DNA of 64,000 bases from Candidatus Iainarchaeum sp. (GTDB taxonomy: Archaea; Iainarchaeota; Iainarchaeia; Iainarchaeales; VGJJ01): positions 84,608 through 148,607 of the forward strand of contig JAUYHT010000008.1 in NCBI GenBank assembly GCA_030688545.1, read 5' to 3'. A model generated the notes under the pieces. That model had not been told where the DNA came from, did not search any database, and saw only the letters and a list, made by a program, of their open reading frames with translations. Shown here piece after piece: positions 18,578 to 40,346 of this stretch. Made by a program: the position numbers and the translations under genes. Position 1 is the stretch's first letter; every line of letters begins with the position of its first letter.

Positions 18578-18652
18578 GGCCCCGTAGCTTAGTCTGGATA
18601 GAGTGTCGGGCTTCGGACCCGAAGGTCGGGGGTTCAAATCCCTCCGGGGTCG
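18578..18652 (+). tRNA. tRNA-Arg (anticodon TCG)
   Basis: Folded by hand: acceptor GGCCCCG/CGGGGTC, D-arm GCTT..GAGT, anticodon stem TCGGG/CCCGA with loop CTTCGGA, 5-nt variable loop, T-arm GGGGG-TTCAAAT-CCCTC, discriminator G; no encoded CCA. Confidence 0.85.
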
Positions 18653-18717
18653 CTAAATCGTAAAGTCAACGTGCGCTAAAAGTCTTTTTAGGGAGCAACC
18701 GCACGCAGATGATATGA

Positions 18718-20097: not shown

Positions 20098-20179
20098 AAA
20101 TATTCAACAGAGCCGGACCTGTTGAAAAATAAGGCCTTTTAGAATCGAGATTAAAACAGGTTTGTGAACTATAGATAGT

Positions 20180-20629: not shown

Positions 20630-20695
20630 CATATTCAGTGCCCTGAGACATCGGCATTAAAAATATTAGATGCCCGATATTTGCGAGGTGGTAGC

Positions 20696-21331: not shown

Positions 21332-21351
21332 TACGAAAAAATAATATTTCC

Positions 21352-22626
21352 TTATTCGTATCGCAGCGCTTCAATGGGTCTTAACCGTGATGCATTCATT
21401 GCGGGAACGAGACCTGCAATGATTCCGATGATCGTTGATAGAGTGATTGCAATAATAATTAATTCGGGTGAAACAAATATAGTGGATCCCTGTCCCCCCG
21501 GTACTGATAAGAGGCCGGTACTCGATACGCCCACCGAAGCGAGTGTGCCTAAAATGACTCCAATAATTCCCCCTACTAATCCAAATAATCCCGATTCCAT
21601 TACAAAAAGAGTTAGTATTTCATTGTTGGTCGAACCCAATGCTTTTAGGATCCCAATTTCTTTCGTTTTTTCCAGGACGGAAGTAAACATACTATTGGCC
21701 ACACCCAACGCTCCCACGATCAATGAGATGGCGGCAATGGCGCCTAGGAATAGGGTGAGTGTTCCAGTGATAGCACTTACTTGCTCCTGAAGTGCTTGCG
21801 AAGAGGTAACCGTAAAATCTTGATTTCGTTCCGTCACTCTTCGAGATATTTGTAAGGAGGCAGTAAGGTCATTTACCGTTTGATCAACCTGTTCGGAGTC
21901 CGAAACTTTTGCTTGAATGCTCGTATACGTATCGCGATTAACATCATCCGACAATACATTCCATGCTCCATTCAAGGTGGTATAAACAGTTGAATCGCCC
22001 TGTCCAAATCCACTTCCGGACGGCGAAAGAATTCCCACCACCGTGAAGGGCTTTCCTTCTAACGTGATAGTCCTCCCCAATGTAATGGGTTGCTTGAACA
22101 CAGTAGTAGCAACGTTCGTTCCAATCACTACCCCGACAGAATCACTCGGCGTAAGAAAACGGCCAGCGGACAAAGTTAGATTGGACGTCTGAGTCCACGT
22201 GACAGGATTAACACCCTGAAGACTCACATTAGTCGTTTCACCCAGAAAAATAATTTCGGCTCGTCCAGAAACGATTTCAGTGACAGCCGTAACATAGGGA
22301 TGAGTGTCAATAATGATGGCATCTTTCTTGGTAAGCGTGGGCGCCTCGTCCGTGGAAGCAGTAGTTGTCATACTGACTCCCCCGCCTCCTCCCCGAAAAC
22401 CACCACCAAATCCTTGTGCACGGCTGAAGCCCGGAGTAACCGTAATAATATCGGCTCCAAAACTGGAAAGTTGTTGGGTTACACTCGCTTGCGCCCCTTC
22501 TCCGATGGAGATGATTGCCACTACTGCCGCCACTCCAATAATGATTCCCAACAAGGTAAGCCAGGATCGAAGCCGACGATGGACAATACTGTTTAGCGAG
22601 AGCGCAAAGGAATCCGCAACTTTCAT
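21352..22626 (-). CDS. ABC transporter permease, MacB/FtsX-like
   Basis: N-terminal transmembrane helix, large extracytoplasmic domain, C-terminal FtsX-type 3-TM bundle. Confidence 0.85.
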   Translation of the reverse strand: MKVADSFALSLNSIVHRRLRSWLTLLGIIIGVAAVVAIISIGEGAQASVTQQLSSFGADIITVTPGFSRAQGFGGGFRGGGGGVSMTTTASTDEAPTLTKKDAIIIDTHPYVTAVTEIVSGRAEIIFLGETTNVSLQGVNPVTWTQTSNLTLSAGRFLTPSDSVGVVIGTNVATTVFKQPITLGRTITLEGKPFTVVGILSPSGSGFGQGDSTVYTTLNGAWNVLSDDVNRDTYTSIQAKVSDSEQVDQTVNDLTASLQISRRVTERNQDFTVTSSQALQEQVSAITGTLTLFLGAIAAISLIVGALGVANSMFTSVLEKTKEIGILKALGSTNNEILTLFVMESGLFGLVGGIIGVILGTLASVGVSSTGLLSVPGGQGSTIFVSPELIIIAITLSTIIGIIAGLVPAMNASRLRPIEALRYE

Positions 22627-22629
22627 ACC

Positions 22630-24138
22630 TTACCTCCGTTCCGGTTTTCGCGAATCGGATGATGTACGACCTTTTTCAAGTTCCCCTGATTGAAAGAAAT
22701 GGATAAACAAACCAGCCGATACAACAGCTGCCCCCAGGACTGCAAGTTCATTTCGACCGAGTAGGAAAATGGCTACCAGAAATAAGATTATCACTCCTAT
22801 TATTCGCACGGCAAGCGCTTTCCAATCCTTTTTGGCACGCCATTGATTGTAACCAATTCCCCCTCCCACGAGAAGAATCAATAACCCCCATGCAATCAAA
22901 GGGGATGCGCCGGTAGGGACGGGAGTAGTATTCGACCCATTTCCAACCGAGGTTGCAGGTAACGAAATTGTTTTTTGTACGCTTTGTCGTTCTCCCGTGG
23001 TATCCGTGTAGGATATCTCCATCTCCAGCGTGCGTGGGATCAATTCACTTGTTGGAGTGGGGCTGCGCGAAACACTTCCGGATGAAGTAACGCTATTCGG
23101 AGAAGATGATGGAGTGCTTTTGCTGGCTAAGGGAAACGTCGCAATCGTGAAATCCCCTTTATTGAGATTACCCAGGATCGAGACATTGCTTCCTCCGCTT
23201 GAACTTCCAAGAGGAGTTAAAAGTTTGGCTACGACTGCCCCTGCATTGTTGGAACCAATATTGGCAATGCTCACGGATAATTGTGTCGCCGTCATTTCGG
23301 CACTCACTTCAAAATCAGTAGTGCCTCCTACAATGACTCCTATTTCCGAGCTTTGTTCCTGTGTTCCATTGCTATCAATGAAGGATAAATCAATCGTCAA
23401 AGGGTAAATTCCTGTGGCAATGTTAGGATCGGCTGCTACCGTGTACTGGATATTGACTTTTTCTCCCGGCTGGATAATGGAAATGTATCGTTTGTTGTCC
23501 GATCCAACGGGTAAAATCAGTGAGCTTTCTTCAGCCCATGAAAAAGAAATATTTGAGATGGGAGACCCACTTACGTTAGTTAAAGTAAAGATAACATTCG
23601 TTTGGTTTCCAGGATTCACGACGCGCGGTTCCAAGACAACGTCAATATTTTTCTGCACGCCGGTAACGGGAACAATGATTTCATGCAGTTCGGTTACGGG
23701 AAGTCCATTTCGCAAATAGGAAAGGGAAAGGATTACGGGATAATGCCCAGGTATGGTATCTTCTTTGACGCGAAATGAAAAAATGAGTGTTTTGGTTGCA
23801 CCAGGTGCAATAGCGGATTCGACATCTGTTAGACTTACTGGTTCAAATTGATCTCCCACATCCAAAAAGGCATTCAAATCTTGAATGGTAATACTGGACC
23901 CTTTGTTATGGATGTCCACTGCAAGACTGACGGTGTCTCCTGCGTGGATAGTGCTTGGAAGAAAGTTGGTCTTTTGAATTTCGGCCAGGAAAGCAAACTC
24001 GCCCGGAAAATCTCCAAGTTGCGCATGGACGGAGGATCCTGCACTCAACAAAAATAATCCTAAAATAAAATAGAACACAGGATTCCTACTCCATTGGCGT
24101 GTCGTTGTTTTTCCATCTGCATCATTCATTTGTTTCAT
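22630..24138 (-). CDS. secreted surface protein with repeated CARDB/S-layer-like beta domains and C-terminal TM anchor
   Basis: Signal peptide, repetitive beta-rich domains, Ser/Thr-rich linker and C-terminal hydrophobic anchor. Located between the ABC ATPase and permease genes with 4-nt overlaps. Confidence 0.65.
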   Translation of the reverse strand: MKQMNDADGKTTTRQWSRNPVFYFILGLFLLSAGSSVHAQLGDFPGEFAFLAEIQKTNFLPSTIHAGDTVSLAVDIHNKGSSITIQDLNAFLDVGDQFEPVSLTDVESAIAPGATKTLIFSFRVKEDTIPGHYPVILSLSYLRNGLPVTELHEIIVPVTGVQKNIDVVLEPRVVNPGNQTNVIFTLTNVSGSPISNISFSWAEESSLILPVGSDNKRYISIIQPGEKVNIQYTVAADPNIATGIYPLTIDLSFIDSNGTQEQSSEIGVIVGGTTDFEVSAEMTATQLSVSIANIGSNNAGAVVAKLLTPLGSSSGGSNVSILGNLNKGDFTIATFPLASKSTPSSSPNSVTSSGSVSRSPTPTSELIPRTLEMEISYTDTTGERQSVQKTISLPATSVGNGSNTTPVPTGASPLIAWGLLILLVGGGIGYNQWRAKKDWKALAVRIIGVIILFLVAIFLLGRNELAVLGAAVVSAGLFIHFFQSGELEKGRTSSDSRKPERR

Positions 24139-24857
24139 CTCCCTGTCCTATTTTTTCCATCATAATGAATTTGACCATCTTTCAATTCAATGACACGATC
24201 CGCATACTTGGCAATATCCGATTCATGCGTAACCAACACGATGGTTTTTCCTTGCTTGGCATGAAGGTCCTCGAAAATATCCATGATCTCATAACTCGTT
24301 TTCGAATCCAAATTTCCGGTGGGCTCATCTGCCAAAATCATGGATGGATCGGCCGACAAGGCGCGCGCTACTGCCACGCGCTGGCGTTCTCCTCCAGAAA
24401 GCTGGGAAGGATAGTGTTGAATTCGATGGGATAGGCCGACTTGATCCAGAAGCTTGGTAACGGTCGTATTGATTTCATTTTTCTCAAACTCATGAATGCG
24501 CATGGGCAAAGCAACATTCTCAAAAACATTAAGGGTAGGATAAAGATTGAAAGTCTGGAATACGAAACCAATGGCTTTCCCCCGAATGCGTGAGACTTCC
24601 GATTCGGAAAGAGCGGAAATGGACGTTCCTTCCAGGAGGATTTCACCTTTTGTCGGAATATCCAATGCCCCTACCATATTCAATACGGTGGACTTTCCAG
24701 AGCCGGATGCTCCCATAATAGCTACAAATTCTCCTTTTCGGATCGTAAGACTGATTCCTTTTACGGCTGGAACCTGCACCTGGTCCATCTGGTAGATTTT
24801 CCAGGCATCTTTAATCTCCAAAATAGGGATATCCGTAGAAAATCGTTTAATCGCCAT
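24135..24857 (-). CDS. ABC transporter ATP-binding protein (MacB/LolD-like)
   Basis: Walker [10 protein letters not shown], signature [15 protein letters not shown], Walker [13 protein letters not shown]-loop. Confidence 0.9.
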
Positions 24858-24941
24858 ACTTTATATGGGAGTGCAACCATTAATAGATTGACCTGTAACG
24901 AGATGTAACGAGTAATCTCTTCAATTGAAATAGGGTGAAAC

Positions 24942-25532
24942 ATGAAACAAGCTGAAACGATTTATAAAACCAAAAAAAGATACCTTGCACTAATGATTCT
25001 CTGTTTCTTCTACGGAGGATTCACCCTTATTATGGCGCTGATTGTGGGATATTCTACTTTCTGGAGAAGCCAAATCGCCGATCCGAGTCTATTCCAGCGT
25101 AGTATCTTTGATCGTGGACCTGCTGATGCCAATCGCTTTTTACCCCCGGATTTTAATCGCGCATTTGTCGAGCGCCTTCCCCTCGATCCTTTTTCAATTC
25201 TCACATCGCCCCCTATTTTGCTTTTCATATTAGGTGGGGTTCTCTCTATTCTTGCAGGGCTAGCTATTTGGAATTTGATGAGAGAAAAGGAAATTAAGAA
25301 AATCAGAGAGGAAACGGCAAATCACTTGTTGCTTCCAGAAGAACTCCAAGTGTTGGAAGCCTTGAAGAAATCCAACATGGAATCCACACAATCTCGAATA
25401 ACAGCAGAAACAGGATTGAGCCGTGTCCAGGTGCATCGCGTGATCAACCGATTGGAGGCCAAGGGAATCCTCGAAAAGCACAAGTATGGACTGACAAACA
25501 AAATTATTTTGAAAAAAGAAATATTCGAATAA
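24942..25532 (+). CDS. membrane-anchored winged-helix (MarR/ArsR-like) transcriptional regulator
   Basis: Two N-terminal TM helices plus C-terminal LQVLEALKKSNMESTQSRITAETGLSRVQVHRVINRLEAKGIL wHTH. Confidence 0.55.
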   Translation: MKQAETIYKTKKRYLALMILCFFYGGFTLIMALIVGYSTFWRSQIADPSLFQRSIFDRGPADANRFLPPDFNRAFVERLPLDPFSILTSPPILLFILGGVLSILAGLAIWNLMREKEIKKIREETANHLLLPEELQVLEALKKSNMESTQSRITAETGLSRVQVHRVINRLEAKGILEKHKYGLTNKIILKKEIFE

Positions 25533-25679
25533 ACTCAGAGTGCAAGCGCTGCTGTTTTTTTGCCTGATTGCATAGGCATATGCCCTTCCCTCCGTTGAAA
25601 AGGGAAAGGGATACACCATTTGCACTTTCTTTACCCGCCATTAAAAGACAACCCCGGAGCACCTTTTCACCCTTGCTAC

Positions 25680-26627
25680 CTAATTATTCCCAAAGTCTGA
25701 ATTCTCCAAGAGGTCTTTGGATTCTTTTATTTTGATTTCCTGATCAAAGTGGTTCAATCTGTGGAGAACTCTTTCGAGCATTATTTGGTCTCTTTTCTCA
25801 CTGTATATTACGTGGAGTATGTTATTGATTGTTTGGATGGTTTTTTCGTCGAAGTTGGCTTCTCTTCTATTTTGGATGTCGGAATATGCAGACAGGAGGG
25901 TGTTGAGCAGTATGTTTTGTAATTCGGTTGAGATGTAGTTTACATAATTGAAGTCGTAGTCTCTTCGTCTCAGTCTTTCCATTTCTGTTTTTTGCATTCT
26001 TTCCTTAGCTTTTATTTCCATTTGTTTCAGTTGGTTAATTCCTTCGACTTGCTCTTGAAAATAGGCGGCCTCTTCGTGGTTGTTCTTTTTCTTCATTTTC
26101 TTAGCAAGAATGCGCATTCCTTTGGCGGCGTGTCGTTCTTGCCGCTTGAGGTGCGTAATAAAATATTTTCTACTGAATTCGACTTGTCTTAATCGGTTGT
26201 TCCACGTTTCCATCATTAACTGTTTTATTTTTTCAATCTCAATCTCTTGTAAAGGGCCAAGAGTAATGAGAATGTTGTTGAAGAACGTTTCAATAGGGCT
26301 TTCTGTGATGAAATATTTTTTTCTTTTTGCGTCCGAACCAATTCTAATTCCCTGAAATCCTTTTCCATCTACATTAACGTGAATATTTTTCCCAATTCTT
26401 ATCTCATTTTGAATAAGGTTTGTTCCTTCCAACTCTTTAAGCGCCAGTTGTATACCAGTGTCTTTTTTGGCGTCTAACAACTCGAATATATCTCGTTGGA
26501 AAAGTCCGTCTGGGAACAGTTCGAGCAGGTATAGCACGCGACTGATTCGCGGAGTTTTCAGGCAGGTAACCCACTTGGTAGTAGGTTTGGATTTTTCCCC
26601 TACTTTATTTCCGTCTTTGGACATCAT
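25680..26627 (-). CDS. hypothetical protein (N-terminal wH-like segment, coiled-coil rest); AT-rich
   Basis: Coherent 315-aa ORF in low-GC island. Confidence 0.45.
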   Translation of the reverse strand: MMSKDGNKVGEKSKPTTKWVTCLKTPRISRVLYLLELFPDGLFQRDIFELLDAKKDTGIQLALKELEGTNLIQNEIRIGKNIHVNVDGKGFQGIRIGSDAKRKKYFITESPIETFFNNILITLGPLQEIEIEKIKQLMMETWNNRLRQVEFSRKYFITHLKRQERHAAKGMRILAKKMKKKNNHEEAAYFQEQVEGINQLKQMEIKAKERMQKTEMERLRRRDYDFNYVNYISTELQNILLNTLLSAYSDIQNRREANFDEKTIQTINNILHVIYSEKRDQIMLERVLHRLNHFDQEIKIKESKDLLENSDFGNN

Positions 26628-26702
26628 CTATGTTCATTAGTGGCTTAACCCCTATAAATCTCCGTAGAAAATCAACAGTTTTTCTACGTGGAGGTGAGAA
26701 CG

Positions 26703-26831
26703 GTGAAGACCTTTCAAATAACGGTTCCTGAAGCCTTAGATTCACGGCTCCAGGAACAAAAGAAGAGCTTTACCACCCGAAACGCCCTGATTCTCCACTT
26801 GTTGAATCGGGGATTGGAGGCCCAAAAATGA
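26703..26831 (+). CDS. ribbon-helix-helix (CopG/Arc-like) small DNA-binding protein, about 42 aa
   Basis: Below ORF-track size cutoff; translation VKTFQITVPEALDSRLQEQKKSFTTRNALILHLLNRGLEAQK has the RHH beta-strand plus helix pattern. GTG start at 26703 (or 26694). Confidence 0.45.
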   Translation: MKTFQITVPEALDSRLQEQKKSFTTRNALILHLLNRGLEAQK

Positions 26832-26963
26832 GTCAAAATCAGACGATTTTGAGGATCGTCAGGTTGGCCAAGGAAGGAGGGGCTGAAAAGTTCCGTTCGT
26901 GGGAGCTCAAACTCATCGAAAAATGAAAAATCCACTCCGACTAGGGAATGGAAAAATTAGGTT

Positions 26964-27179
26964 TTGGATATGGATAAGCAGCAAAAGCTCACTTTAATCT
27001 TTTCGGAAACGACTTTCCCAATTCGCGCGCGCTATTGTACGCAACGCACGGCTAAGTTGTATGGCGCGAAGAAGCTTTTCCAGCTTCTTTATTCTCAAAA
27101 TCGACTTTTTCATGGAAGCATCGCAGTTTCAGAAGATGGCAAGCGCTACTTTATTTTTGAAACAGGGGTACTTGAATGA
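26964..27179 (+). CDS. small hypothetical protein (71 aa)
   Basis: Its stop overlaps the next ATG (ATGA). Confidence 0.3.
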   Translation: MDMDKQQKLTLIFSETTFPIRARYCTQRTAKLYGAKKLFQLLYSQNRLFHGSIAVSEDGKRYFIFETGVLE

Positions 27180-27316
27180 ATCCACATCCTGTTTGTACGT
27201 TTTGTAATCAAGAAAAACCTCCATTCATCGGACTCGGATTCGAAATTTTCTGCCCGAAACATGCTGAAGATGTTGGAAAAGCACTTTTAGAATTCTCTAA
27301 GAAGGCGAATCCATGA
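27176..27316 (+). CDS. small zinc-ribbon-like protein (46 aa; C..C...C..H)
   Basis: Manually translated MNPHPVCTFCNQEKPPFIGLGFEIFCPKHAEDVGKALLEFSKKANP; overlaps the flanking genes by ATGA at both ends. Confidence 0.4.
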   Translation: MNPHPVCTFCNQEKPPFIGLGFEIFCPKHAEDVGKALLEFSKKANP

Positions 27317-28929
27317 ATAGAAAAGAAAAGTCTTTGCGCATTCGCGGAGAATGGACTTGCAAACAATGCAATGAAAAGTTTTATGAAACGACCCAACCAA
27401 CAGTTTGTAAATGTAGACGCGGAGATTTTTATTTTTCAGGATCGCGCGAAGAAGAAGTCGTCAAAATAACGGTGGAAGGAGTTCACTACGAGACTATTTG
27501 CGACGAAAACAATAATGTCTCCTTTGCATTTCTAACAGAGAGTGGATCGCCCAACATTACTGCATTTGTTGATGATGAGGACAAAAATATACGATTTGTT
27601 CCAATTTTTAAGAAAAAAATAATGAAAAAAGATGCAACAGTAGTGATTTTCCCTGAAATACCAGTCGAATATGGAAGCGACTCCGAACTAGTCCATGAAA
27701 TCAAGAGCTTTATCCACCGATATTTGGATATTTCATCTGAACATGAGATGTTCGCGACGCAATATATTTTGCTTTCGTGGGTATACGAAGCGCTAACCAC
27801 TATCCCTTATTTATCGGCCCGAGGAGACTTTTCGACAGGGAAAAGTCGATATCTAGATACCATTGGAGATCTATGTTACTTACCTATTCATGCGAATGGA
27901 GCAACAACCGATAGTCCAATCTTTCGTTTGATAGGAACTTTTGGAGGAACTTTGGTCGCAGAAGAAATTGACAAAGAAAAAAGCGACACAACCCAAATGC
28001 TAACAAAAATAATCAATCTCGGCTACGAAAAGAAAAATTCCATCCTCCGCTCAGACAAAGAAGATCCAAATGAAATTGAGTCATTTAATGTTTTTGGACC
28101 AAAAGTTTTCTCAAGGCGATTTGAATTTCAAGACAAAGCGACTGAGAGTCGATGCATTACAGAATTAATGTGCGACACAACAAGAGAGGATATTCCAATC
28201 CAACTCCCACAAAAGTTCTTTGAAGAACAAAAAGTTCTACGAAATAAATTATTGATGTTTCGATTACGAAATTTACAAAAAGTTGACCCAAATGCGATTG
28301 AAAAAATTCGCTTACCCAAACAACTAGACTCTCGAATAAGACAAGGGCTCGCAAGCTTTGCCATCTTGTTTCATAATAATGAAGAAATCTTCACACAATT
28401 TTTAGACTTCGCCAAAAAACACCAACTAAAAATTAAAGAAGAGTTATCCACGAGCATCGAAGGACAAATAGCCCAATTTCTTTTCGACTACAAAGAAGCA
28501 CCAAAAGAACAGCAGGAAAAAATTCAACCCCAACTAATCGCTAAATGCTTAAGTGAAAAATCAAACAAACCATTAACCCCTAATTTTATCGGTGTTCGAC
28601 TAAAGAGTTTGGGAGTAAAGACGGTTCAAGGACATGAAGAAGAAGGCGGAAAACGTAAAACCATTCGCCACATCGTTTGGGATGAACCACTTTTTGAACG
28701 AATATTTCTGAAATACTTGCCGGAATATTGGATTGAAAAGAATAAGGATTATTTTGATACTGAGGCCCAGAGTCTCGTGCCTGCTGTGCCAAACGTGCCA
28801 GTCGTGCCAAGCTCTATCCACCTGGCACAAGCGGCACAAGTGGCGCAACCAGCACAACGTTCACCCATTACCCATGAAACAGACCCTGAACCCAATTCAG
28901 AGGAGATTGTTCCTCGGGAGCTGATTTGA
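27313..28929 (+). CDS. zinc-ribbon plus P-loop NTPase protein; putative replication-associated (SF3-helicase-like) protein of the element
   Basis: N-terminal CKQC...CKC; Walker A GDFSTGKS; Walker-B-like TLVAEEID; C-terminal low-complexity VPAVPNVPVVP. Family assignment is inference. Confidence 0.45.
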   Translation: MNRKEKSLRIRGEWTCKQCNEKFYETTQPTVCKCRRGDFYFSGSREEEVVKITVEGVHYETICDENNNVSFAFLTESGSPNITAFVDDEDKNIRFVPIFKKKIMKKDATVVIFPEIPVEYGSDSELVHEIKSFIHRYLDISSEHEMFATQYILLSWVYEALTTIPYLSARGDFSTGKSRYLDTIGDLCYLPIHANGATTDSPIFRLIGTFGGTLVAEEIDKEKSDTTQMLTKIINLGYEKKNSILRSDKEDPNEIESFNVFGPKVFSRRFEFQDKATESRCITELMCDTTREDIPIQLPQKFFEEQKVLRNKLLMFRLRNLQKVDPNAIEKIRLPKQLDSRIRQGLASFAILFHNNEEIFTQFLDFAKKHQLKIKEELSTSIEGQIAQFLFDYKEAPKEQQEKIQPQLIAKCLSEKSNKPLTPNFIGVRLKSLGVKTVQGHEEEGGKRKTIRHIVWDEPLFERIFLKYLPEYWIEKNKDYFDTEAQSLVPAVPNVPVVPSSIHLAQAAQVAQPAQRSPITHETDPEPNSEEIVPRELI

Positions 28930-29211
28930 TTGAAAAAACCTATTCGAGTTCACCGCGCTTGGCGGATATCTCCCGAAACCGATCAAGCCATCAAGAAATG
29001 GTCAAAGATCTTAGGAGTCTCCGAGACCCAATTTGTCGAATCCACTATACTAACTGTATCTGAGGGCTTAGCGGAGAGTGCGACACGCGTGAAATCGCGT
29101 GTATCTGCCTCAATAGCTTCAAAATCCACTCAAAAAGAAGAGAAAAATACGCCCACCCCATCATCAAAGATAATAGAAAAGACTATACAAAAAGACACGG
29201 AGGAACCGTGA
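28930..29211 (+). CDS. small hypothetical protein
   Basis: Start 1 nt after the previous stop. Confidence 0.4.
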   Translation: MKKPIRVHRAWRISPETDQAIKKWSKILGVSETQFVESTILTVSEGLAESATRVKSRVSASIASKSTQKEEKNTPTPSSKIIEKTIQKDTEEP

Positions 29212-29212
29212 C

Positions 29213-29770
29213 ATGGAAACGAAAGCCGTTTTTAAAACACATGGAGAACCCGATCAGGTGCTATATCAGCTTATTCAACGAAATCACTTCCTCCCCTGGT
29301 ATCGATTCTCGCCTGAGCATTGGGTAGCGATCCAATTAGGCAGACATCGAATTGCGGAGTATAATGAAGGAAAAATAGTGTCGCGATGTTACACCACGAT
29401 GAAAGAATTTCAAGATAGTGTTTCCCTCCAAATATTATTCCTTGGAACCCCCTTAGTTGGAGTTAACCCCGAACTGTATGAACGATTCCGAAACGATGAC
29501 GTTTTACAAACTAAAGCTATCGAAGCCGTTAGTTCTTGGCATCGTGACGGAACTCCCAATGCCAAAAGACGATTAGCACAAATCAGAATGTTTTGTCTAT
29601 TACTCGCGATTGCAAAAGAAGAAGGGCGTTCAATCGAAGAAATTTCCATGGAAGGACATGAGGCAGACAAAAATCTTTCCCAAGAAACAAAAGCAGAAAT
29701 CAAAGCAAAAGGCTCGTGCTTGGCCACTCCAATACTTATTGAAGAAATGATTAAAACCACTCAACAATAA
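29213..29770 (+). CDS. hypothetical protein
   Basis: Start 2 nt after the previous stop; last gene of the co-directional module. Confidence 0.45.
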   Translation: METKAVFKTHGEPDQVLYQLIQRNHFLPWYRFSPEHWVAIQLGRHRIAEYNEGKIVSRCYTTMKEFQDSVSLQILFLGTPLVGVNPELYERFRNDDVLQTKAIEAVSSWHRDGTPNAKRRLAQIRMFCLLLAIAKEEGRSIEEISMEGHEADKNLSQETKAEIKAKGSCLATPILIEEMIKTTQQ

Positions 29771-29782
29771 CACATAATTTAG

Positions 29783-29819
29783 CCAGAAAAAATAAAGTTG
29801 TGTGTTTTTTATTTTCTGG
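29783..29819 (+). terminator. hairpin (CCAGAAAAAATAAA-N8-TTTTTTATTTTCTGG) with T-runs after the module
   Basis: Seen directly. Confidence 0.4.
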
Positions 29820-29961
29820 AACATTCATGCAGGCAAAAATATCTCTTGTTTTCCCGCAAAAACAGCTCTTTTTTCACAATTCAAATCAAAAGACAATGAT
29901 TTCTGCATTGCCTGAAAAACATTTTTTCCAAAAATTTCAAAATTATGAAGACAACATGGAC

Positions 29962-30222
29962 CTAAAGCGCTTCAATTTCATGAAGCAGTTTTCCCAAACT
30001 CTGACCCTTAGAAGTCAGACTATAGGCGAAGAACTTTCTTCTTTTTTCACGAATCACGGTCGACTCAATCAAATTCAGTTCTTCGAGCTCCTTGATACGA
30101 CTCGACAATGTGGCTTCCCGGTCTACCGTCTTTTTGAGGTCCTTGAACCGCAAGCCCTTGCTCTTATAGAGCGATAAAAGCACTTTTACGATATATTTCC
30201 TTTCGAGAATCGTTGTATCCAT
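29962..30222 (-). CDS. small winged-helix transcriptional regulator
   Basis: 86 aa; KVLLSLYKSKGLRFKDLKKTVDREATLSSRIKELEELNLIES wHTH pattern. Confidence 0.55.
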   Translation of the reverse strand: MDTTILERKYIVKVLLSLYKSKGLRFKDLKKTVDREATLSSRIKELEELNLIESTVIREKRRKFFAYSLTSKGQSLGKLLHEIEAL

Positions 30223-30301
30223 ACCTACCGAAATCGTAGGTATTTTACCTCAAATAGCTTTTACGCACATTAAATAGTGTTACTTACGCTGGCAGTAAGT
30301 A
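30221..30301. promoter_or_regulatory. two related hairpins, ATACCTAC-N7-GTAGGTAT (30221-30243) and TACTTAC-N7-GTAAGTA (30281-30301), each followed by TATTTTA, in a divergent promoter region
   Basis: Seen directly; the first overlaps the regulator start codon. Confidence 0.4.
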
Positions 30302-30338
30302 TTTTAATGGGGGTTTTGTTCCTACTTTATGGTAAAGT

Positions 30339-31421
30339 ATGCCCCGAATCGCCCTTTTTGGAACCTTTTGGCTTTTGGCTATTATCGGGCTGAGCGCGTG
30401 CATAAGTGCCCCTGAAAATCAACAGCAGGAGATTAACCCTATTGACATCCCCGAAGTTACTCCGAATCTAAAAATTGCTGGGATAGTTGAGACTGATGTT
30501 TTCCGACTCTTTCCAGCAATTCGACAAGTGAATTCCAACACTATATCCTATGAGGTAAGACGTTGTGCATTTGGCGAAGAAGCAGTTCCAGGTGCCAATT
30601 TTGGACGACCCGTAGTGAGTATTCATTCATTAGATGAAACAACATCTAAGCGCAATGACATTATCATGTCAGTGGTTGAAGATTCACGCGACTATGTGCA
30701 AACGCTCTCCGCACCGCTCCTTACATTTCTCATTTCAAATGAAAGTGACGTGAATTCAGGCGAAATAATTCTTTCCTATGATGAATCGGATAATGGTGAC
30801 CAATATTGGGTTCCGCGACCATTCAGTTTTTCTCCTTCATTTTCAAAATTTACTGAATTAACCTTGGTCGGAGCTTCCGAAAATAGCGATTATGCGTATT
30901 TTTTCAATCCCGCATTGACTTCAAGGACCTATTTCTACGATCAAAATGAAAACTTGATTTTCACAGACGCGGGAAAACTGGGAGATAAGAATGCAACCTA
31001 CGAATTCAATGAAATCCCTCCCGAAAAAATTTTGGATGCAAATATCTTGGGCTTGTGCGACAGCGAATTTGACTATGTCGAAATTGAACAGAATACTTTC
31101 CCTGTTTCAACTAGGAAAATTCCATGCAAACAAAATTTCGACCAGATCAGAATTGATAACCTCCAACCGAACGAATCAGCACTTGTTTCCCTTCACTATT
31201 ATCCTATGCGACGAATAAATTTGAACATGGAGCATACACCCGATCCTCCATTTCAATGGCCTGTAAAGGAACAAAAAGAAGCCGCGATCAACATTCAAAT
31301 AAACGCACAGTATTCTGCCAAGAAAGAGAAGTTATTCCAGATTGAATTAAAGTTTACCAATCGGGAATATGAGTATGATATCTATGATAATGTGTGCAAA
31401 CCAATTAGTGAGAGTTCTTGA
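30339..31421 (+). CDS. secreted/lipoprotein-like hypothetical protein
   Basis: N-terminal signal peptide ending LSAC (lipobox-like). Confidence 0.5.
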   Translation: MPRIALFGTFWLLAIIGLSACISAPENQQQEINPIDIPEVTPNLKIAGIVETDVFRLFPAIRQVNSNTISYEVRRCAFGEEAVPGANFGRPVVSIHSLDETTSKRNDIIMSVVEDSRDYVQTLSAPLLTFLISNESDVNSGEIILSYDESDNGDQYWVPRPFSFSPSFSKFTELTLVGASENSDYAYFFNPALTSRTYFYDQNENLIFTDAGKLGDKNATYEFNEIPPEKILDANILGLCDSEFDYVEIEQNTFPVSTRKIPCKQNFDQIRIDNLQPNESALVSLHYYPMRRINLNMEHTPDPPFQWPVKEQKEAAINIQINAQYSAKKEKLFQIELKFTNREYEYDIYDNVCKPISESS

Positions 31422-31647
31422 AATTGTTAATCATTGATTTCTCAGCTCTGTTCCTCATAAGAAAAGCTGTGAGGAACATGCATACTCTCTCTTCGCCAAA
31501 GAACCCTATTTTTTCGGAAATGTGAACAAAAACATAAAAAATACGGAAAAGAAGAATCCTTTTCCGAAACGGAACATCAAAAATCATGACCTTGGTGATT
31601 TGCTCGTTCTTTTTAAGAAAAAACAAAATGGAAAATTTCTATTTGTC

Positions 31648-32376
31648 TTACTCCTTTGATACCCCGTCTTCACAAACCATTGTAAAATCTTCTGTGACAC
31701 TGAGTTCCATTTTTCTAACGTTTTTCCTCAATCGATTGATAACTGCAGGTTCTCCCTTTTCTTTAATATTTTCTTTCAATTGCCAATGTGTGAAGTTGGC
31801 AACAATATCCGCTATTCGAATAAGCGGATAATCCCAATCACCATCTTGCAAATCGCAAGACCCTAACCAATTTTCTGCATGCTCTCGTACTTTTTGCTTT
31901 GATGTTTCCCAACCATATCCTTTCAAGTCTTTGTCCCATCGCATGACGGTTTCACCTTTGAATCCCTGGATTTTTAGAACCTCAACCACTAACCATTCAT
32001 GTTTAGCATAGATATCATTCATTGTGGTATATGCTGATGTTCCATCGTCTTTGAAAGTGATTCGCCAAAAGGGAATCCTGTCATAGTTTTTCTTATCAAT
32101 TTTTCCACGAAAAATTTCTTTGTCAACATACAGAATAAAGAATTGAAAATCAGTCTTGGCAAGCCGATCCACAATTTCTTCCCATGAGCTATGTAAATTT
32201 ACTCCTTTTTTTCCTGGCCAGCTTGTTTCAAGCCAATCACAAATTTTTTCAGCGGCTTTGAAATCCCGGGTTGTGATCGTGACAAGAGCGAGATATCGAT
32301 TAGAGTAATTATCATATTCGATCTCACGATTTCCCGAGGCATCAAAACCAGCATAAATTTCCTTCAAAGAGTCCAT
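31648..32376 (-). CDS. DUF3800-like protein
   Basis: N-terminal GFDASGN and C-terminal LIRIADIVANF resemble the DUF3800 terminal motifs (D.SG ... LQ.AD..A). Confidence 0.45.
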   Translation of the reverse strand: MDSLKEIYAGFDASGNREIEYDNYSNRYLALVTITTRDFKAAEKICDWLETSWPGKKGVNLHSSWEEIVDRLAKTDFQFFILYVDKEIFRGKIDKKNYDRIPFWRITFKDDGTSAYTTMNDIYAKHEWLVVEVLKIQGFKGETVMRWDKDLKGYGWETSKQKVREHAENWLGSCDLQDGDWDYPLIRIADIVANFTHWQLKENIKEKGEPAVINRLRKNVRKMELSVTEDFTMVCEDGVSKE

Positions 32377-32445
32377 AATTAGGTCTTTTCCAAATTAAGG
32401 TTAAAAAATGAATCAAACCACCCGTGCTAATCATGCTAATGAGAT

Positions 32446-32952
32446 GTGAATACCATGATTGATCCAGCCGTCCCCAATGAGACACGCGAGCAAAACCGAA
32501 TTGCAATTGTGATTGGTGTTTTTGCCATCTTGTTTGTTTTGTATCCTCACGTTAACCAATCTACTGATGAAATCAAACTTCTTTTTTACCTCACGGCCTT
32601 AGTAGCTATGTTTTACGGTTTGTATCTCTTTTTCATTGCCCTTGCGTATACCCCTGAAAGCGTTGGTCGAATGCATTCAAAATATTTTAACAAATTCAAA
32701 GAACTGGCATATTTCAATTATTTCATCGGCTCGTATGCAGCGTTTCTATTTATGGCCGTAATTGTTGTTTCGCTTATTTTTGGCGGAGTCGCAAAGGCAA
32801 TTTTGGGTTTTGAAATCCCTCTAATAATTCAACAAATTCTTCTTATACTTTTGATTGCTGTTGAAGCGATTAAAATTTTTGGAGTGAATACAGAGGAAAA
32901 AACTGAAGAGCCGATTTGGTCTAGAAGAAGGCGGTACCATGAGCAAAAATAG
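32446..32952 (+). CDS. 4-TM membrane protein
   Basis: Hydrophobic helices; overlaps the next gene by 14 nt (operon). Confidence 0.5.
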   Translation: MNTMIDPAVPNETREQNRIAIVIGVFAILFVLYPHVNQSTDEIKLLFYLTALVAMFYGLYLFFIALAYTPESVGRMHSKYFNKFKELAYFNYFIGSYAAFLFMAVIVVSLIFGGVAKAILGFEIPLIIQQILLILLIAVEAIKIFGVNTEEKTEEPIWSRRRRYHEQK

Positions 32953-34129
32953 TGCCGACTTTGTTAAGGCAAAGAAACTCTACTATGTTGAAAAATGGGC
33001 CGTTACTGAAGTTAACATAAAATTTGAGAATGTTGATGGAAACCAAAGTATTTCTGCTACGATGATTTTTGAAAAGGGCGGGAAAACTGAAACGATTGTA
33101 TCAGGTGAACCAGATTTTGTTGACATGGCATTTAATTTCAAAACATTATATCGAGACGGTGAAACTAAGATTATAGATTTATCATCTACTCCAATTAAGA
33201 ATGTCGCTAATCTTTACAAGAATGTCGAGTTTTTCAAAGACCTTTCCAAAGATAAGGTTAGAGAACTTATTGGAGAAATACAAAGTGGTAAATTTTTATT
33301 TCCTTCTGGATTTAACTTGCGTTCGACGATATTAGATGTCTTAGCTAAGAGATTTGATAATGAACATGTAAAATTCCTGCTCGCAAACTACAATGCATCT
33401 TTAGCGTTGCAACTAGCTGGGATGCCGTTATGGTATTCATCTTACCAGAAAATGAAGAATGCTGCAAATGACAAAGGGAGATTCGAAAATTTTGAGAGAA
33501 TATTTAGCAGAGTTTTTAGGGAGACACTTGGTGAAATGCCTGTTATAAAGGCGTTTTTAGCGAAGGAAACAAAATACAAAGCCGATAGAAATTTATTGTT
33601 AAAAAATCTTGGAACCGAATTTTCGCGCCATAAAGAACGGTGGGATACTTACTACAAAACTACCGGCGGACAGATGGATGGAAATGCTGCAGTATTGCAT
33701 TTTCTTGATGATTACGCAAATTTGTTTGAGATTATCAAACCTTCTCTTCAAGATATGGTCTCTATCGTGAAGGAGAAAAACAATGAAAATAATATCTCTT
33801 TAGAAAGTGATAATCAAATAGCAGCGTATCTCAAACAAAAGGGATTTTCTGATTTAGTTGACCCGATTGACCCAATACTGAGGAATGGCAGGAGTCATTA
33901 CGCGCTTGAGCAGATAGAAAAAGGGAAGCTTCATATTTATAATACAAAATTCAAAGATAGAAAGCTGCTTAAAATTTATGATATACAAGATGTCATTGAT
34001 AAGTACATGGAATTTTGTGACTTTGCTCGCGCGTTAGTAATTACTGATGTCCTTAACGACGAACTTCTTTTGCTAAAGGCCCTTGATTCGCCCGATTTTA
34101 AATTCTTTGTCATTGAAAATAAGACTTAG
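32939..34129 (+). CDS. hypothetical protein (396 aa)
   Basis: Coherent AT-rich ORF; no recognised motif. Confidence 0.5.
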   Translation: MSKNSADFVKAKKLYYVEKWAVTEVNIKFENVDGNQSISATMIFEKGGKTETIVSGEPDFVDMAFNFKTLYRDGETKIIDLSSTPIKNVANLYKNVEFFKDLSKDKVRELIGEIQSGKFLFPSGFNLRSTILDVLAKRFDNEHVKFLLANYNASLALQLAGMPLWYSSYQKMKNAANDKGRFENFERIFSRVFRETLGEMPVIKAFLAKETKYKADRNLLLKNLGTEFSRHKERWDTYYKTTGGQMDGNAAVLHFLDDYANLFEIIKPSLQDMVSIVKEKNNENNISLESDNQIAAYLKQKGFSDLVDPIDPILRNGRSHYALEQIEKGKLHIYNTKFKDRKLLKIYDIQDVIDKYMEFCDFARALVITDVLNDELLLLKALDSPDFKFFVIENKT

Positions 34130-37001: not shown

Positions 37002-37003
37002 AG

Positions 37004-37642: not shown

Positions 37643-37644
37643 AG

Positions 37645-40345: not shown

Positions 40346-40346
40346 A

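Follow-up and report, generated by a model that had tools for sequence, protein, structure and literature searches.

What does a compact run of co-directional genes, built around a 538-aa protein with a Walker A motif, contribute to the chromosome of a Candidatus Diapherotrites (DPANN) archaeon? The initial annotation had read it as a plasmid- or virus-like module centred on what may be a divergent SF3-helicase or a primase-associated replication protein. We analysed the 64-kb stretch of DNA that contains these genes (hereafter the window).

Genomic setting and gene content of the module

The module lies in a low-GC island, at about 17-41 kb of the window, which has archaeal host genes on both flanks. 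At the left edge of the island stands a tRNA-Arg gene, the probable integration target, with a full-length tyrosine integrase gene beside it (Table 1). The layout recurs in an Iainarchaeum MAG (locus L085) as tRNA, integrase, divergent gene, RHH gene, small ORF and Zn-ribbon helicase, the two integrases being 32% identical. These observations agree with the proposed plasmid- or virus-like context. At least 10 related loci encode an integrase homolog on the same strand as the helicase gene and 2-3 kb upstream of it, and the helicase relative in locus L003 adjoins a terminase. A search of the whole 64-kb window for a second copy of the tRNA-Arg 3' end (attR) found none. Searches of the island found no viral hallmark genes, identified no primase or polymerase and saw neither ParA nor ParM. 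HEPN and PIN genes are likewise present in the island, metabolic and transport genes of ordinary kind are scattered through it, and a STAND-like ATPase is encoded immediately upstream of the tRNA. The 315-aa protein transcribed divergently from the module had no family match in the libraries searched; one homolog, 37% identical, adjoins an RHH_6 gene in marine archaeal contigs, and positional analogues occur in L085 (414 aa) and L003 (225 aa).

Table 1. Features of the module and of its surroundings (positions in the window)
Feature	Position	Strand	Evidence and remarks
tRNA-Arg (TCG)	18578-18653	+	ARAGORN; Rfam 64.4 bits
Tyrosine integrase, 459 aa	18718-20097	+	PF00589 4.8e-19; phrog_1 7.9e-25; C-terminal CxxC...CxxC
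Divergently transcribed 315-aa protein	25680-26627	-	N-terminal winged-HTH-like segment and long helical region (sequence reading)
Putative promoter/operator region	26653-26697	+	TATAAAT 26653-26659; palindrome 26663-26688; Shine-Dalgarno 26690-26697
RHH-like protein, 42 aa	26703-26831	+	Sequence pattern; phrog_4738 transcriptional repressor 0.0086; coding 0.19 bits/codon
32-aa ORF, ATGA-coupled to RHH gene	26828-26926	+	GGAGG 8 nt upstream; best of six frames, 0.12 bits/codon; status uncertain
69-aa ORF (71 aa from TTG 26964)	26970-27179	+	Best of six frames, weak 0.08 bits/codon
46-aa ORF	27176-27316	+	C7-x2-C10...C26-x2-H29; ATGA-coupled on both sides; coding marginal, 0.01 bits/codon
Initiator-helicase candidate, 538 aa	27313-28929	+	AAA+ fold; coding 0.20 bits/codon
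Left iteron-like arm, GTGCC x4, 9-bp spacing	28777-28812	+	Units at 28777, 28786, 28795, 28804
Right iteron-like arm, inverted	28824-28855	-	GGCAC 28824, 28833; one-mismatch GGCGC 28842, AGCAC 28851
93-aa ORF, TTG start	28930-29211	+	Coding 0.15 bits/codon
185-aa protein, last operon gene	29213-29770	+	Coding 0.23 bits/codon; one homolog, 69% identity
AT-rich imperfect inverted repeat	29783-29819	+	Contains TTTTTTATTTT; 14-nt arms, 86% complementary

All the co-directional ORFs that had been described exist. From the 71-aa ORF onwards they are joined by ATGA overlaps (27176-27179 between the 71-aa and 46-aa ORFs, 27313-27316 between the 46-aa and 538-aa ORFs) or by gaps of 0-1 nt: none between the 538-aa stop codon (TGA 28927-28929) and the 93-aa start (TTG 28930), and 1 nt between the 93-aa and 185-aa ORFs. 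The junction between the RHH gene and the 71-aa ORF, given earlier as 1-2 nt, is instead a gap of 132-138 nt (26831 to 26964 or 26970) containing an overlooked 32-aa ORF, for which a homolog search found none.

At the operon start, an inverted-repeat search found a perfect palindrome, CGTAGAAAA-N8-TTTTCTACG, between TATAAAT and a strong Shine-Dalgarno sequence, GGAGGTGA, which precedes the best start (GTG 26703) of the RHH-like ORF. Of 2000 shuffles, 5 reached a 9-nt arm, as did 5 of 920 windows taken from the island. We infer that TATAAAT is the promoter and, from the position and rarity of the palindrome, that the latter is the operator; the 42-aa protein is a candidate autorepressor of the operon. 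Alone, this protein fell below threshold in every family library searched, Pfam included, and its AF2 monomer model has one long helix instead of two. Syntenic RHH proteins are found in L085 (RHH_5, 8e-4) and L003, and a profile built from them matches SvtR (2kel) at 3e-6. The proposed backbone of an RHH regulator followed by an NTPase is seen in the window, L085 and L003, but an upstream RHH gene is a trait of this subset of elements and not of the family, RHH-type families being matched by 2 of 142 small ORFs upstream of helicase relatives. The archaeal plasmid pRN1 carries the CopG-like RHH protein ORF56 followed by the ORF904 primase-helicase, and resembles the window in having a small RHH gene coupled upstream of a replication gene in one operon; ORF904, however, is a Prim-Pol plus SF3 protein of a different family, and of the window helicase's relatives only the subset with L085 and L003 has such an upstream RHH gene.

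For every ORF of the module the proposed frame had the best coding score of the six. Relative to the range of true genes (0.21 +/- 0.09 bits/codon), the RHH, 93-aa, 185-aa and helicase ORFs fall within it, the 32-aa and 71-aa ORFs are intermediate and the 46-aa ORF is marginal. The gene caller of an independent assembly (L165) called the 46-aa and 93-aa ORFs and did not call the RHH and 71-aa ORFs. Beside helicase homologs, sequence-conserved copies were detected for none of the small ORFs. Positional analogues do occur in L085 and L003, where an RHH gene comes first and a small ORF overlaps the start of the helicase gene; such overlapping small ORFs are present in L001 and L002 as well. The C..C..C..H pattern reported for the 46-aa protein is present. 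Neither the 69/71-aa ORF nor the 185-aa protein gave a family match in the libraries searched; the homolog of the latter is preceded by a 95-codon ORF. Weak matches of the 93-aa protein to TacA1 (0.029) and to the DUF1778 structure 7zg5 (1.1) suggest from sequence that it is possibly a second RHH-type (DUF1778/TacA-like) DNA-binding protein.

The inverted repeat annotated as a hairpin terminator downstream of these genes exists, but it folds no better than shuffled sequences (z -0.6; 46 of 200 shuffles equal it), which leaves the terminator role unsupported. The T-run within it, rather than the hairpin, is probably the operon end or archaeal termination signal. An HxlR gene (29962-30222) is convergent with the operon end.

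The 538-aa protein and its relatives

The 538-aa protein, a complete AAA+ ATPase, has a hexameric replicative helicase fold that lies between MCM/Cch and SF3. Its Zn ribbon (residues 16-34; C16-x2-C19...C32-x-C34) is followed by a beta domain (45-97), a helical bundle (123-156), the AAA+ core (166-285), lid helices (300-392), a winged helix (406-454) and a disordered tail (488-538). The N-terminal zinc ribbon and the Walker A motif GDFSTGKS (G171 to S178) are as first described; Walker B is E217-E218, a hairpin in the pre-sensor-1 position (243-259) carries R246, and R280 is an arginine-finger candidate. The catalytic motifs are intact and conserved among relatives.

Replicative helicases are the best structural matches in Foldseek and BFVD searches, and no Pfam model of MCM, DUF927 or SF3 type (D5, P4 alpha, VirE, DUF3987) matched the protein. 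MCM, including archaeal provirus and plasmid copies, and the MCM-like Cch of SCCmec (PDB 3f8t, 4r7z, 5dgk) share with the window protein the Zn-binding N-terminus, beta domain, AAA+ core, pre-sensor-1-position hairpin, helical lid and C-terminal winged helix. In small archaeal viruses MCM is often the sole replication protein (10.1101/2025.02.15.638363). The window protein is, however, much smaller than MCM and by sequence comparison is not derived from the host copy. SF3 primase-helicases (the C-terminal region of phage NrS-1 polymerase, poxvirus D5/E5, ASFV C962R, and P4 alpha-type, VirE and DUF3987 proteins) supply top Foldseek matches (NrS-1, 1.3e-8) and BFVD matches. In contrast to these proteins, the window protein has no primase domain, and its post-core helical lid aligns better with MCM-type AAA+ proteins.

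The family to which the protein belongs is very large and has no database annotation, and its members are often fused to primases. Among 149 full-length loci from viruses and genomes, 47 have an N-terminal extension of at least 150 aa, and the fused domains comprise AEP Prim-Pol, PriCT_1, Zn_ribbon_DnaG with DNAG_N and Toprim, PriL, BT4734_N and Gins51_C. Relatives share the primase-PriCT-helicase architecture of SF3 proteins, which fits the association pattern described for mobile-element primases (PMC5862659). They occur in viruses and genomes, on at least 79 IMG/VR viral contigs, and in archaea and many bacterial phyla. The fold and the primase fusions bear out the replication protein that had been proposed. 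No match to a non-replicative NTPase family or a defence system was found in the libraries searched, and on this point also the replicative assignment stands.

Inverted 9-bp-phased arrays in the helicase gene

A feature that the initial annotation had missed lies within codons 489-515 of the helicase gene, which code for part of the disordered tail. Here four GTGCC units at 9-bp spacing are followed, after a 15-nt spacer, by an inverted arm in the same 9-bp phase. These inverted arrays are a new finding and the most informative feature of the module. Exact GTGCC/GGCAC copies number six within 61 bp, with no others in about 7 kb; nowhere else in the 64-kb window does a 9-bp-phased pentamer run reach three units as the left arm does, and none of 300 shuffles gave a run of four. 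The left arm encodes (VPx)4 (residues 489-500) and the right arm (xAQ)4 (residues 504-515). Since the two arms encode unrelated peptides, the symmetry resides in the DNA. No AT-rich unwinding element was found between or beside the window arms (spacer AT 0.53).

Family-wide, such arrays are linked to the place where the helicase gene ends, either inside its 3' end or immediately behind it. They were found in or directly after the gene in 88 of 163 loci, with none in the other 75 by a strict criterion, and their positions concentrate at 0.75-1.0 of the ORF or less than 150 nt downstream. Inside helicase ORFs, spacing 9 gave 165 runs, as against 0-6 for spacings 6-8 and 10-15. Among the 78 loci whose array is close to the gene, 44 carry an exact reverse-complement partner (scrambled control, 3). 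In L007 the arrays bracket the coding segment for the winged helix. Arm separation, 15 nt in the window, has a median of about 90 nt in relatives, whose spacer AT ranges from 0.29 to 0.76. Winged helices of loci with the same repeat core are more alike than ATPase identity predicts (0 of 2000 permutations, with phylogeny partly controlled).

Interpretation of the module

The reading that we favour, with reasonable though far from complete confidence, is that an integrated mobile element has its replication and control module here, encoding a self-loading initiator-helicase with an iteron origin inside its own gene. Several results speak against it: the missing AT-rich unwinding element, the short distance between the window arms, the 75 loci without an array by the strict criterion, the missing attR, the subthreshold RHH protein with its single-helix model, small ORFs that lack detectable homologs beside related helicases, and an island in which no primase or polymerase was identified. 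A close parallel is SaPI Rep/PriRep of Staphylococcus aureus (PDB 7pds, 7ola, 8tch), self-loading initiator-helicases that match the window protein structurally and share its NTD, AAA+ ATPase and C-terminal winged helix, with primase fusion optional. Both systems are integrated elements with an integrase, and both have short opposite iterons or iteron-like units where the rep or helicase gene ends, at its 3' end or directly behind it; SaPI Reps bind penta- or hexanucleotide iterons of opposite orientation just downstream of rep via the winged helix (PMC9371898). Sequence similarity between the two proteins is, however, not detectable, and the arrays of the window family are strictly 9-bp phased and often inside coding sequence, those of the window lack an AT-rich centre, and the family spans archaea and many bacterial phyla. 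Inverted pentanucleotide repeats direct head-to-head double-hexamer assembly of large T antigen in SV40, and the lambda origin has its iterons within the linker-coding segment of initiator gene O. These and papillomavirus E1 involve other proteins and another geometry, the window family having 3-4 units per arm in strict 9-bp phase, and an origin function in the window is suggested by analogy.

It is rather unlikely, in our judgement, that the arrays are instead cis-sites without a role in initiation for which the helicase gene is a mere host, such as an RHH-bound partition centromere or operator (bound, for example, by the 93-aa protein), a packaging site or integrase arm-type sites. Plasmid RHH proteins (ParR, omega) do bind phased short repeats, a candidate RHH gene directly follows the window arrays, no AT-rich region accompanies them, and L054 and L013 have additional arrays kilobases away from the helicase. 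However, the arrays follow the helicase through very different settings, in fused and in stand-alone proteins, in viruses and in chromosomes, in bacteria and in archaea, and the core motif correlates with winged-helix similarity, whereas RHH genes do not track the helicase and the island shows neither ParA nor ParM. Terminases occur in some loci only, integrases lie 2-9 kb away in a subset of loci, and the 3' end of a gene is the wrong position for an operator.

Somewhat less probable again is a decayed, immobile island whose module is by now non-functional, as the missing attR, the interspersed metabolic and transport genes and the absence of viral hallmark genes might indicate; every module ORF is nevertheless intact with coding signal, the helicase keeps its conserved catalytic residues, the iteron arms show next to no deviation and the integrase is full length.

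That the 538-aa NTPase is part of a defence or conflict system (BrxL-like or TOTE-type AEP-associated) and not of a replicon seems to us very improbable. BrxL is among the Foldseek matches (E 2e-6), a few relatives carry an AEP-TOTE domain, and HEPN, PIN and STAND-like genes are nearby. Against this, PADLOC gave no match, replicative helicases match best, the fusion partners are genuine primase modules, PriL and GINS, relatives are found on viral contigs and also next to integrases and terminases, and inverted iteron arrays are typical of origins.

Selection of the repeats as protein, in the form of a V-T/P-x docking motif in a flexible linker with no DNA function, is the least credible account and largely refuted: at least three tandem [VI][TP]x triplets occur in 102 of 254 homologs (1 of 254 shuffled sequences) and the motif falls in a disordered segment of the window protein, but the inverted arms give different peptides in the window, L087 (ATT and VAx) and L007 (ETY and VSx), 43 arrays are found past the stop codon, no more than 1 kb from it (in L110 the two arms are wholly non-coding), the third base of the Val codons is constant within a gene whereas synonymous sites elsewhere vary, and the codon-compatible spacings 6, 12 and 15 are not enriched.

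Overall, the initial interpretation is supported and the observations behind it are confirmed in part. The element is best explained as a cryptic integrative plasmid or provirus beside tRNA-Arg in the Diapherotrites chromosome, replicating by an initiator-helicase. The arrays would be the iterons of its origin, read by the winged helix of the helicase, and the inverted arms would take up two hexamers in head-to-head orientation, as with SaPI Rep, SV40 large T antigen and papillomavirus E1. Since neither a primase nor a polymerase belongs to the module, the helicase would then recruit the host primase and replisome. Binding of the 42-aa RHH protein to the palindrome would repress the operon, and translational coupling through the ATGA overlaps may set the proportions in which the small accessory proteins, Zn-ribbon and RHH-like, are made.

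The predicted helicase and its family

The initial annotation had read nucleotides 26694-29819 as a plasmid- or virus-like replication module around a 538-residue protein with a Walker A motif. A hypothetical protein from a Candidatus Diapherotrites MAG shares 100% identity with this protein, which has no match in Pfam, PHROGs, NCBIfam, PADLOC or the PDB (phmmer and profile searches). No MCM family of Pfam matched it at E ≤ 0.1, nor any of 61 family members at E ≤ 0.01, the sole MCM trace in the family being a weak MCM_WH_arc match in one member. Pfam, NCBIfam and PHROG searches likewise gave no match to the Pox_D5, VirE, DUF927, DUF3987 or NrS-1-like/DUF5906 sequence families; alone among the SF3 and primase-associated families, DUF3874 was found, at 4e-4 in two of the 61 members.

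An alignment of the 61 members was then used for an AlphaFold model (pLDDT 84.6, pTM 0.81), whose domains are listed in the table. The best Foldseek match is the NrS-1 helicase region (1.3e-8); next come MCM, PriRep1, BrxL, LTag, mpox E5, ASFV PrimPol (C962R), Rep68 and E1. In the viral structure library BFVD the nearest folds are phage primase-helicases annotated as Toprim/twinkle, DUF927, VirE, NrS-1-like, DUF3987 and D5. All of these comparisons indicate replicative helicases, as the earlier description of a replication NTPase had anticipated, and a match to a non-replicative family was sought in PADLOC and the family libraries with no hit. In structure the AAA+ core is closest to MCM, with a beta-hairpin preceding sensor 1. 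It also resembles SF3 helicase domains, and relatives are fused to or associated with primases. Walker A, the Walker B acidic pair and an arginine-finger candidate are conserved across the family, as in P-loop NTPases. On the basis of these fold comparisons and the intact, conserved catalytic set, we conclude that the modelled protein is a replicative helicase of the AAA+ type, intermediate between MCM/Cch and SF3 and within none of their sequence families.

Features of the module, the predicted helicase and the surrounding island (nucleotide positions in the window unless residues are stated)
Feature	Position	Remarks
DnaG-type Toprim protein	2675-4147	island flank
HerA	10754-12343	island flank
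Rad50	14398-16761	island flank
tRNA-Arg(TCG)	18578-18653	left end of island
Tyrosine integrase, 459 aa	18718-20097	starts 65 nt past tRNA-Arg; PF00589, 4.8e-19
ABC-transporter cluster	20180-24857	cargo between integrase and replication core
CARDB/NPCBM-like secreted protein, 502 aa	within 20180-24857	cargo
NAD(P)-binding gene, N-terminally truncated	20804-21331	cargo
MacB-type ABC transporter	permease 21352-22626, ATPase 24135-24857	within cargo cluster
Membrane winged-HTH gene	24942-25532	between integrase and replication core
TATAAAT	26653-26659	
Perfect palindrome CGTAGAAAA-N8-TTTTCTACG	26663-26688	
Shine-Dalgarno sequence	26690-26697	
Left arm, GTGCC x4	28777-28808	exact 9-bp spacing
Spacer between arms		15 nt
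Right arm, GGCAC	28824, 28833	reverse complement of GTGCC, same phase
One-mismatch units	GGCGC 28842, AGCAC 28851	same 9-bp phase
Right part of island	34969-35817 and 36546-40790	HEPN, dCMP deaminase, GDSL lipase, SnoaL-like, metallo-beta-lactamase-fold, HVO_A0114-type winged HTH, glyoxalase, PIN-domain
RLI/ABCE1	52164-53936	island flank
RFC small subunit with intein	56620-59496 (+)	island flank; Rep_fac_C, Intein_splicing, LAGLIDADG_3
Zn ribbon	C16, C19, C32, C34	N-terminal; poorly modelled
Beta domain	residues 45-97	AlphaFold model
Helical bundle	residues 123-156	AlphaFold model
P-loop core	residues 166-285	AlphaFold model
Walker A	G171-S178	K177 invariant
Walker B	E217-E218	family consensus D-E; E218 invariant
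Beta-hairpin, pre-sensor-1 position	residues 243-259	R246 conserved
Arginine-finger candidate	R280 in 'ESRC' motif	invariant
Lid helices	residues 300-392	AlphaFold model
Winged helix	residues 406-454	AlphaFold model
Disordered tail	residues 488-538	AlphaFold model

When 1.84 billion cluster representatives were searched exhaustively with a profile, the family numbered 16,835 of them at E ≤ 1e-3, of which 9,730 remained at E ≤ 1e-10 and 2,203 at E ≤ 1e-30; each stands for a 50%-identity cluster. At least 336 species-representative genomes carry family members, the hosts being both archaeal (Iainarchaeum, Thermoplasmatota, Hadarchaeota, Woesearchaeota and Methanophagales) and bacterial (Acidobacteriota, Bacillota, Patescibacteria, Gemmatimonadota and Dehalococcoidia). 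The suspected kinship with plasmids and viruses was borne out by at least 79 IMG/VR viral contigs with family members, but not by the PLSDB plasmid collection, where no member was matched, and hardly by 50,697 deposited phage records, with one partial match (Virus Rctr41k). In one related locus, L003, the helicase gene lies two genes from a large terminase.

A primase-type fusion is present in about one third of the full-length loci (34 of 71 viral and 13 of 78 genomic). The N-terminal domains of relatives include Prim-Pol with or without PriCT_1, AEP-TOTE, BT4734-like_N and Toprim_2, and also Zn_ribbon_DnaG alone, a complete DnaG-type primase (Zn_ribbon_DnaG, DNAG_N and Toprim_3) or a PriL-like domain. 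Mobile-element primases pair with a helicase (PMC5862659), and the primase association of the family agrees with this rule.

Three single proteins of the family have unusual architectures. P0125 (955 aa) has the complete bacterial DnaG-type primase fused to the AAA+ helicase, a layout similar to that of T7 gp4, but its helicase is non-RecA. P0162 (1004 aa) carries the PriL-like domain. P0005 (604 aa) ends in a Gins51_C domain (residues 554-595, 1.5e-15), which suggests that in this member the helicase may be coupled directly to the archaeal GINS-type replisome.

Phased pentamer arrays in the helicase gene

The disordered tail of the window helicase contains a V-P/T-x triplet repeat (VPAVPNVPVVPS), and it was through this peptide repeat that the DNA arrays came to light. 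Such a repeat is present in 102 of 254 homologs, at variable positions, compared with 1 of 254 shuffled controls. At the DNA level, four and two exact units are followed by two with one mismatch and form two arms of opposite orientation, an arrangement typical of iteron-type origins. No further exact GTGCC/GGCAC copy occurs besides these six from 23325 to 30406, and the array is the sole 9-bp-phased pentamer run in the 64-kb window; none of 300 shuffles reached four units. The left arm is translated as (VPx)4 and the right arm as (xAQ)4, two unrelated peptides, so the symmetry is a property of the DNA. Intergenic iterons were also sought, but eight intergenic regions of the island showed no significant k-mer enrichment.

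The same phasing recurs across the family. Inside helicase ORFs we counted 165 pentamer runs of at least three units at a spacing of 9, with 146 located in the 3' 40% of the gene, against 0-6 runs for each of the spacings 6-8 and 10-15, codon-compatible controls (6, 12 and 15) included. Arrays were found in 88 of 163 loci, clustering at relative ORF position 0.75-1.0 or up to about 150 nt downstream; nearly half of the loci are without arrays under the strict criterion. An exact reverse-complement partner array in the same phase within 400 nt was present in 44 of the 78 loci with an array near the gene (scrambled control, 3). The separation of the arms clusters around 60-100 nt and 205-230 nt, the wider class bracketing the segment coding for the winged helix (locus L007). 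Arm spacing in the window is unusually short, and locus L087 shows a compact 4 + 4 layout like that of the window. Both arms of locus L110 are non-coding. Within a gene the Val codon is identical among units and other synonymous sites vary.

Among loci with a common pentamer core, winged helices are more alike than expected from ATPase identity (0 of 2000 permutations, phylogeny being only partly controlled). This tracking of the iteron core by winged-helix similarity provides indirect support, at the level of sequence comparison, for binding of the arrays by the putative initiator. No AT-rich unwinding element was found beside the arrays or near the module. The spacer of the window has an AT fraction of 0.53, the fraction in relatives is 0.29-0.76, and AT content within the island peaks elsewhere, at 34-35 kb.

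Much larger 9-bp-phased arrays were seen in three viral loci: five TGGGA arrays and one of inverted TCCCA in the ~500 nt that follow the helicase gene (L013, 4934-5457), a five-unit run beginning 1 nt past the stop codon (L022, 4137-4182) and three GGGCT arrays 3.4-3.7 kb downstream (L054, 9455-9732). A further viral sub-group (L061, L075, L076 and L082) has, unlike the compact pairs, inverted arrays at opposite ends of the helicase ORF, about 1.2 kb apart. Its units are TGCGG at relative position ~0.1 and CCGCA at ~0.93, or TGCAA and GTTGC in L082.

Operon, control region and integrated island

The tight packing of the module described initially holds at four junctions, namely ATGA overlaps between the 71-aa and 46-aa ORFs and between the 46-aa and 538-aa ORFs, and gaps of 0 nt (538-aa to 93-aa) and 1 nt (93-aa to 185-aa). 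It does not hold for the ribbon-helix-helix (RHH)-like ORF, which lies 132-138 nt from the 71-aa ORF. The best start of the RHH-like ORF is GTG at 26703, giving 42 aa, and is preceded by a strong Shine-Dalgarno sequence (GGAGGTGA). The gap contains a 32-aa ORF that is ATGA-coupled to the RHH gene and has its own GGAGG.

To score coding potential, a codon model was built from 14 long genes of the island, leaving out the module, and calibrated on true-gene chunks (0.21 +/- 0.09 bits/codon) and off-frame chunks (-0.29 +/- 0.21 bits/codon). The proposed frame ranked best of six in every module ORF. By this calibration the RHH (0.19), 93-aa (0.15), 185-aa (0.23) and helicase (0.20) ORFs score within the true-gene range, the 32-aa (0.12) and 71-aa (0.08) ORFs are intermediate and the 46-aa Zn ORF (0.01) is marginal. 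The coding signal expected of the small ORFs was thus largely found, but not their conservation, as tblastn of all of them against 164 related loci returned no homologs. The 185-aa protein and the 315-aa product of the divergent neighbouring gene have one distant homolog each, too few for structure prediction. PADLOC, whose defence-system models gave no match for the helicase, returned weak matches for the 185-aa protein and an unrelated upstream STAND-like ATPase only.

The sole distant homolog of the 315-aa protein (37% identical) is found on marine archaeal contigs (L166-L168, 7520-8963), where its neighbours are a DDE transposase and a small RHH gene (RHH_6); the association of this family with RHH proteins may be functional. 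In the deposited record locus tag Q8P05_06070 (helicase) is directly followed by Q8P05_06075 (185-aa protein), hence the TTG-start 93-aa ORF between them (28930-29211) appears to be missing from that annotation. It has a good coding signal and was called on L165, an independent Logan contig whose own gene caller also called the 46-aa ORF, and neither the RHH nor the 71-aa ORF.

A hairpin terminator had been placed at 29783-29819. The inverted repeat is there, but its stability is no better than that of shuffles (z -0.6), and as a hairpin terminator it is not supported; archaeal termination is more likely signalled by the T-run that it contains. Scans for sigma-70 promoters and intrinsic terminators gave background levels only.

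The 75-bp divergent intergenic region contains, in this order, TATAAAT, the palindrome and the Shine-Dalgarno sequence. Of 2000 shuffles, 5 contain an arm as long as that of the palindrome, as do 5 of 920 island windows. Because it sits over the expected transcription start, the palindrome would make a good operator for the 42-aa RHH protein, a predicted role that we infer from position. Taken alone, the window protein gave no significant match to an RHH family, its only matches being phrog_4738 (0.0086) and DUF7120 (0.19). Syntenic proteins do match such families (RHH_5 at 8e-4 in L085, RHH_6 at 1e-6 in L166), and a four-sequence RHH profile matches SvtR at 3e-6 and CopG at 0.46. A single-sequence AF2 monomer model (pLDDT 91.6) has residues 1-9 extended and one continuous helix at 10-41; the beta-ribbon of RHH proteins forms only in the dimer. 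The putative RHH assignment hence rests on several lines, namely the sequence pattern, the weak PHROG repressor match, the syntenic RHH proteins and the SvtR-matching profile.

The closest relative, locus L085 of an Iainarchaeum MAG (helicase 39% and integrase 32% identical), repeats the gene order of the window: tRNA-Met, integrase, a divergent 414-aa gene, a 57-aa RHH protein, a small ORF overlapping the helicase start, the Zn-ribbon helicase and then Zn-ribbon small ORFs. At least 10 loci have an integrase homolog in the same orientation as the helicase, 2-3 kb upstream of it. The L003 operon likewise opens with an RHH-like gene. The RHH-first architecture noted at the outset is therefore found in the window, L085 and L003, but a Pfam scan of 142 upstream small ORFs from 94 stand-alone loci led us to reject it as family-wide: these ORFs mostly belong to DUF5659 or HTH_17/excisionase, not RHH, and the layout is a feature of a sub-lineage. 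The recognisable small protein found most often directly upstream of stand-alone helicases is DUF5659 (10 of the 142 ORFs, best 8.5e-14), with HTH_17/excisionase next.

The island (~17-41 kb) has a GC content of 32-45% against a window background of ~53%, and its flanks encode archaeal housekeeping proteins. At its left end, the integrase shows the catalytic-domain match and the tRNA-adjacent position of a tyrosine recombinase. Low GC, archaeal flanks and the tRNA-Arg with its integrase together indicate that the module lies in foreign DNA integrated beside a tRNA gene. Direct repeats corresponding to attL/attR were sought by repeat finding, mismatch-tolerant pattern search, extension of exact matches and BLAST with short words. 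Within the 64-kb window the tRNA 3' region and the integrase-proximal sequence recur only as chance 9-11-mers, none of them exceeding 11 nt. Contig L165, a second assembly of the element, is 99.993% identical to window 18620-33579 with a single mismatch (A to G at 33310); with so little difference a selection test has no power, and the contig says nothing about the boundary of the element.

L165 ends within the tRNA-Arg gene (18620) and within a 396-aa ORF (33579); the break in the tRNA may be an assembly-graph branch at an att site, or merely tRNA sequence common to several organisms. The gene just upstream of the tRNA (16879-18039, +) encodes an ATPase of STAND/AAA_16 type, 386 aa long, whose C-terminal winged HTH is AbiEi-like. 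As this gene is already low in GC, the island, or a second one, may extend to the left of tRNA-Arg. Comparison of the window integrase with those of L085 (2940-4229) and L001 (3512-4909, another related locus) showed that integrases of this element type share a C-terminal CxxC...CxxC zinc ribbon and a helical tail beyond the catalytic domain. In the right flank, an intein with a LAGLIDADG homing-endonuclease domain splits the host RFC small subunit gene.

The ABC-transporter cluster is absent from the syntenic L085 element. None of the genes in the right part of the island is viral, several ORFs at 30.3-34.9 kb are without any family match, and Pfam and PHROGs searches found no viral hallmark genes in the island. 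No primase or polymerase gene was found there.

Proposed role and wider meaning

Inverted short repeats assemble double hexamers at the SV40 and papillomavirus origins, and the lambda ori sits inside gene O. SaPI Rep comprises an N-terminal domain, an ATPase and a winged helix, and is a self-loading helicase that recognises penta- or hexanucleotide iterons; these lie directly downstream of rep in opposite directions, and no loader is needed (PMC9371898). The SaPI Rep system is the best analogue of the window helicase and its arrays. From these analogies we propose that the arrays are the replication origin of the element. In this model the winged helix would mediate binding of the helicase to the arrays, followed by head-to-head loading and by recruitment of the host primase and polymerase. 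Against the proposal count the missing AT-rich unwinding element, the short arm spacing of the window and the many loci in which the strict criterion finds no arrays. The main rival is that the arrays serve another cis function, either as a centromere or operator for the small RHH proteins or as a packaging site. We rate this lower because the arrays follow the helicase gene, and no other gene, across contexts.

The interpretation as a replication module is supported, with corrections, by the fold, the primase fusions and the integrase/tRNA context. Our verdict, drawn from sequence, is that the module would be an initiator-helicase with an iteron origin, known in kind. The protein family is without database annotation, and in the literature we found no description of this helicase family or of gene-embedded 9-bp-phased twin arrays.

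We consider the chances evenly balanced that the family is a widespread, undescribed class of self-loading initiator-helicases, whose origins are twin inverted 9-bp-phased pentamer arrays in or after the 3' end of their own gene, often in the linker flanking the winged helix that reads them. To our knowledge, the replication origins and initiators of mobile elements from DPANN and other uncultivated archaea and bacteria are almost entirely unknown. The family is large, occurs in both domains, is fused to every main primase type and is unmatched by Pfam, NCBIfam, PHROGs and PADLOC; the arrays are a simple, recognisable cis-signature that is directly testable. If the proposal is true, sequence alone could suffice to predict the origins of thousands of uncultivated mobile elements, with an in-silico handle on those of metagenomic viruses, and the conserved 'VTxVTxVTx' peptide repeat would be explained as a by-product of the DNA signal. 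Arrays that are origins would also provide a clear case of a DNA signal shaping the disordered region of a protein, and a compact helicase-plus-origin cassette that might serve vectors for archaea without genetic tools.
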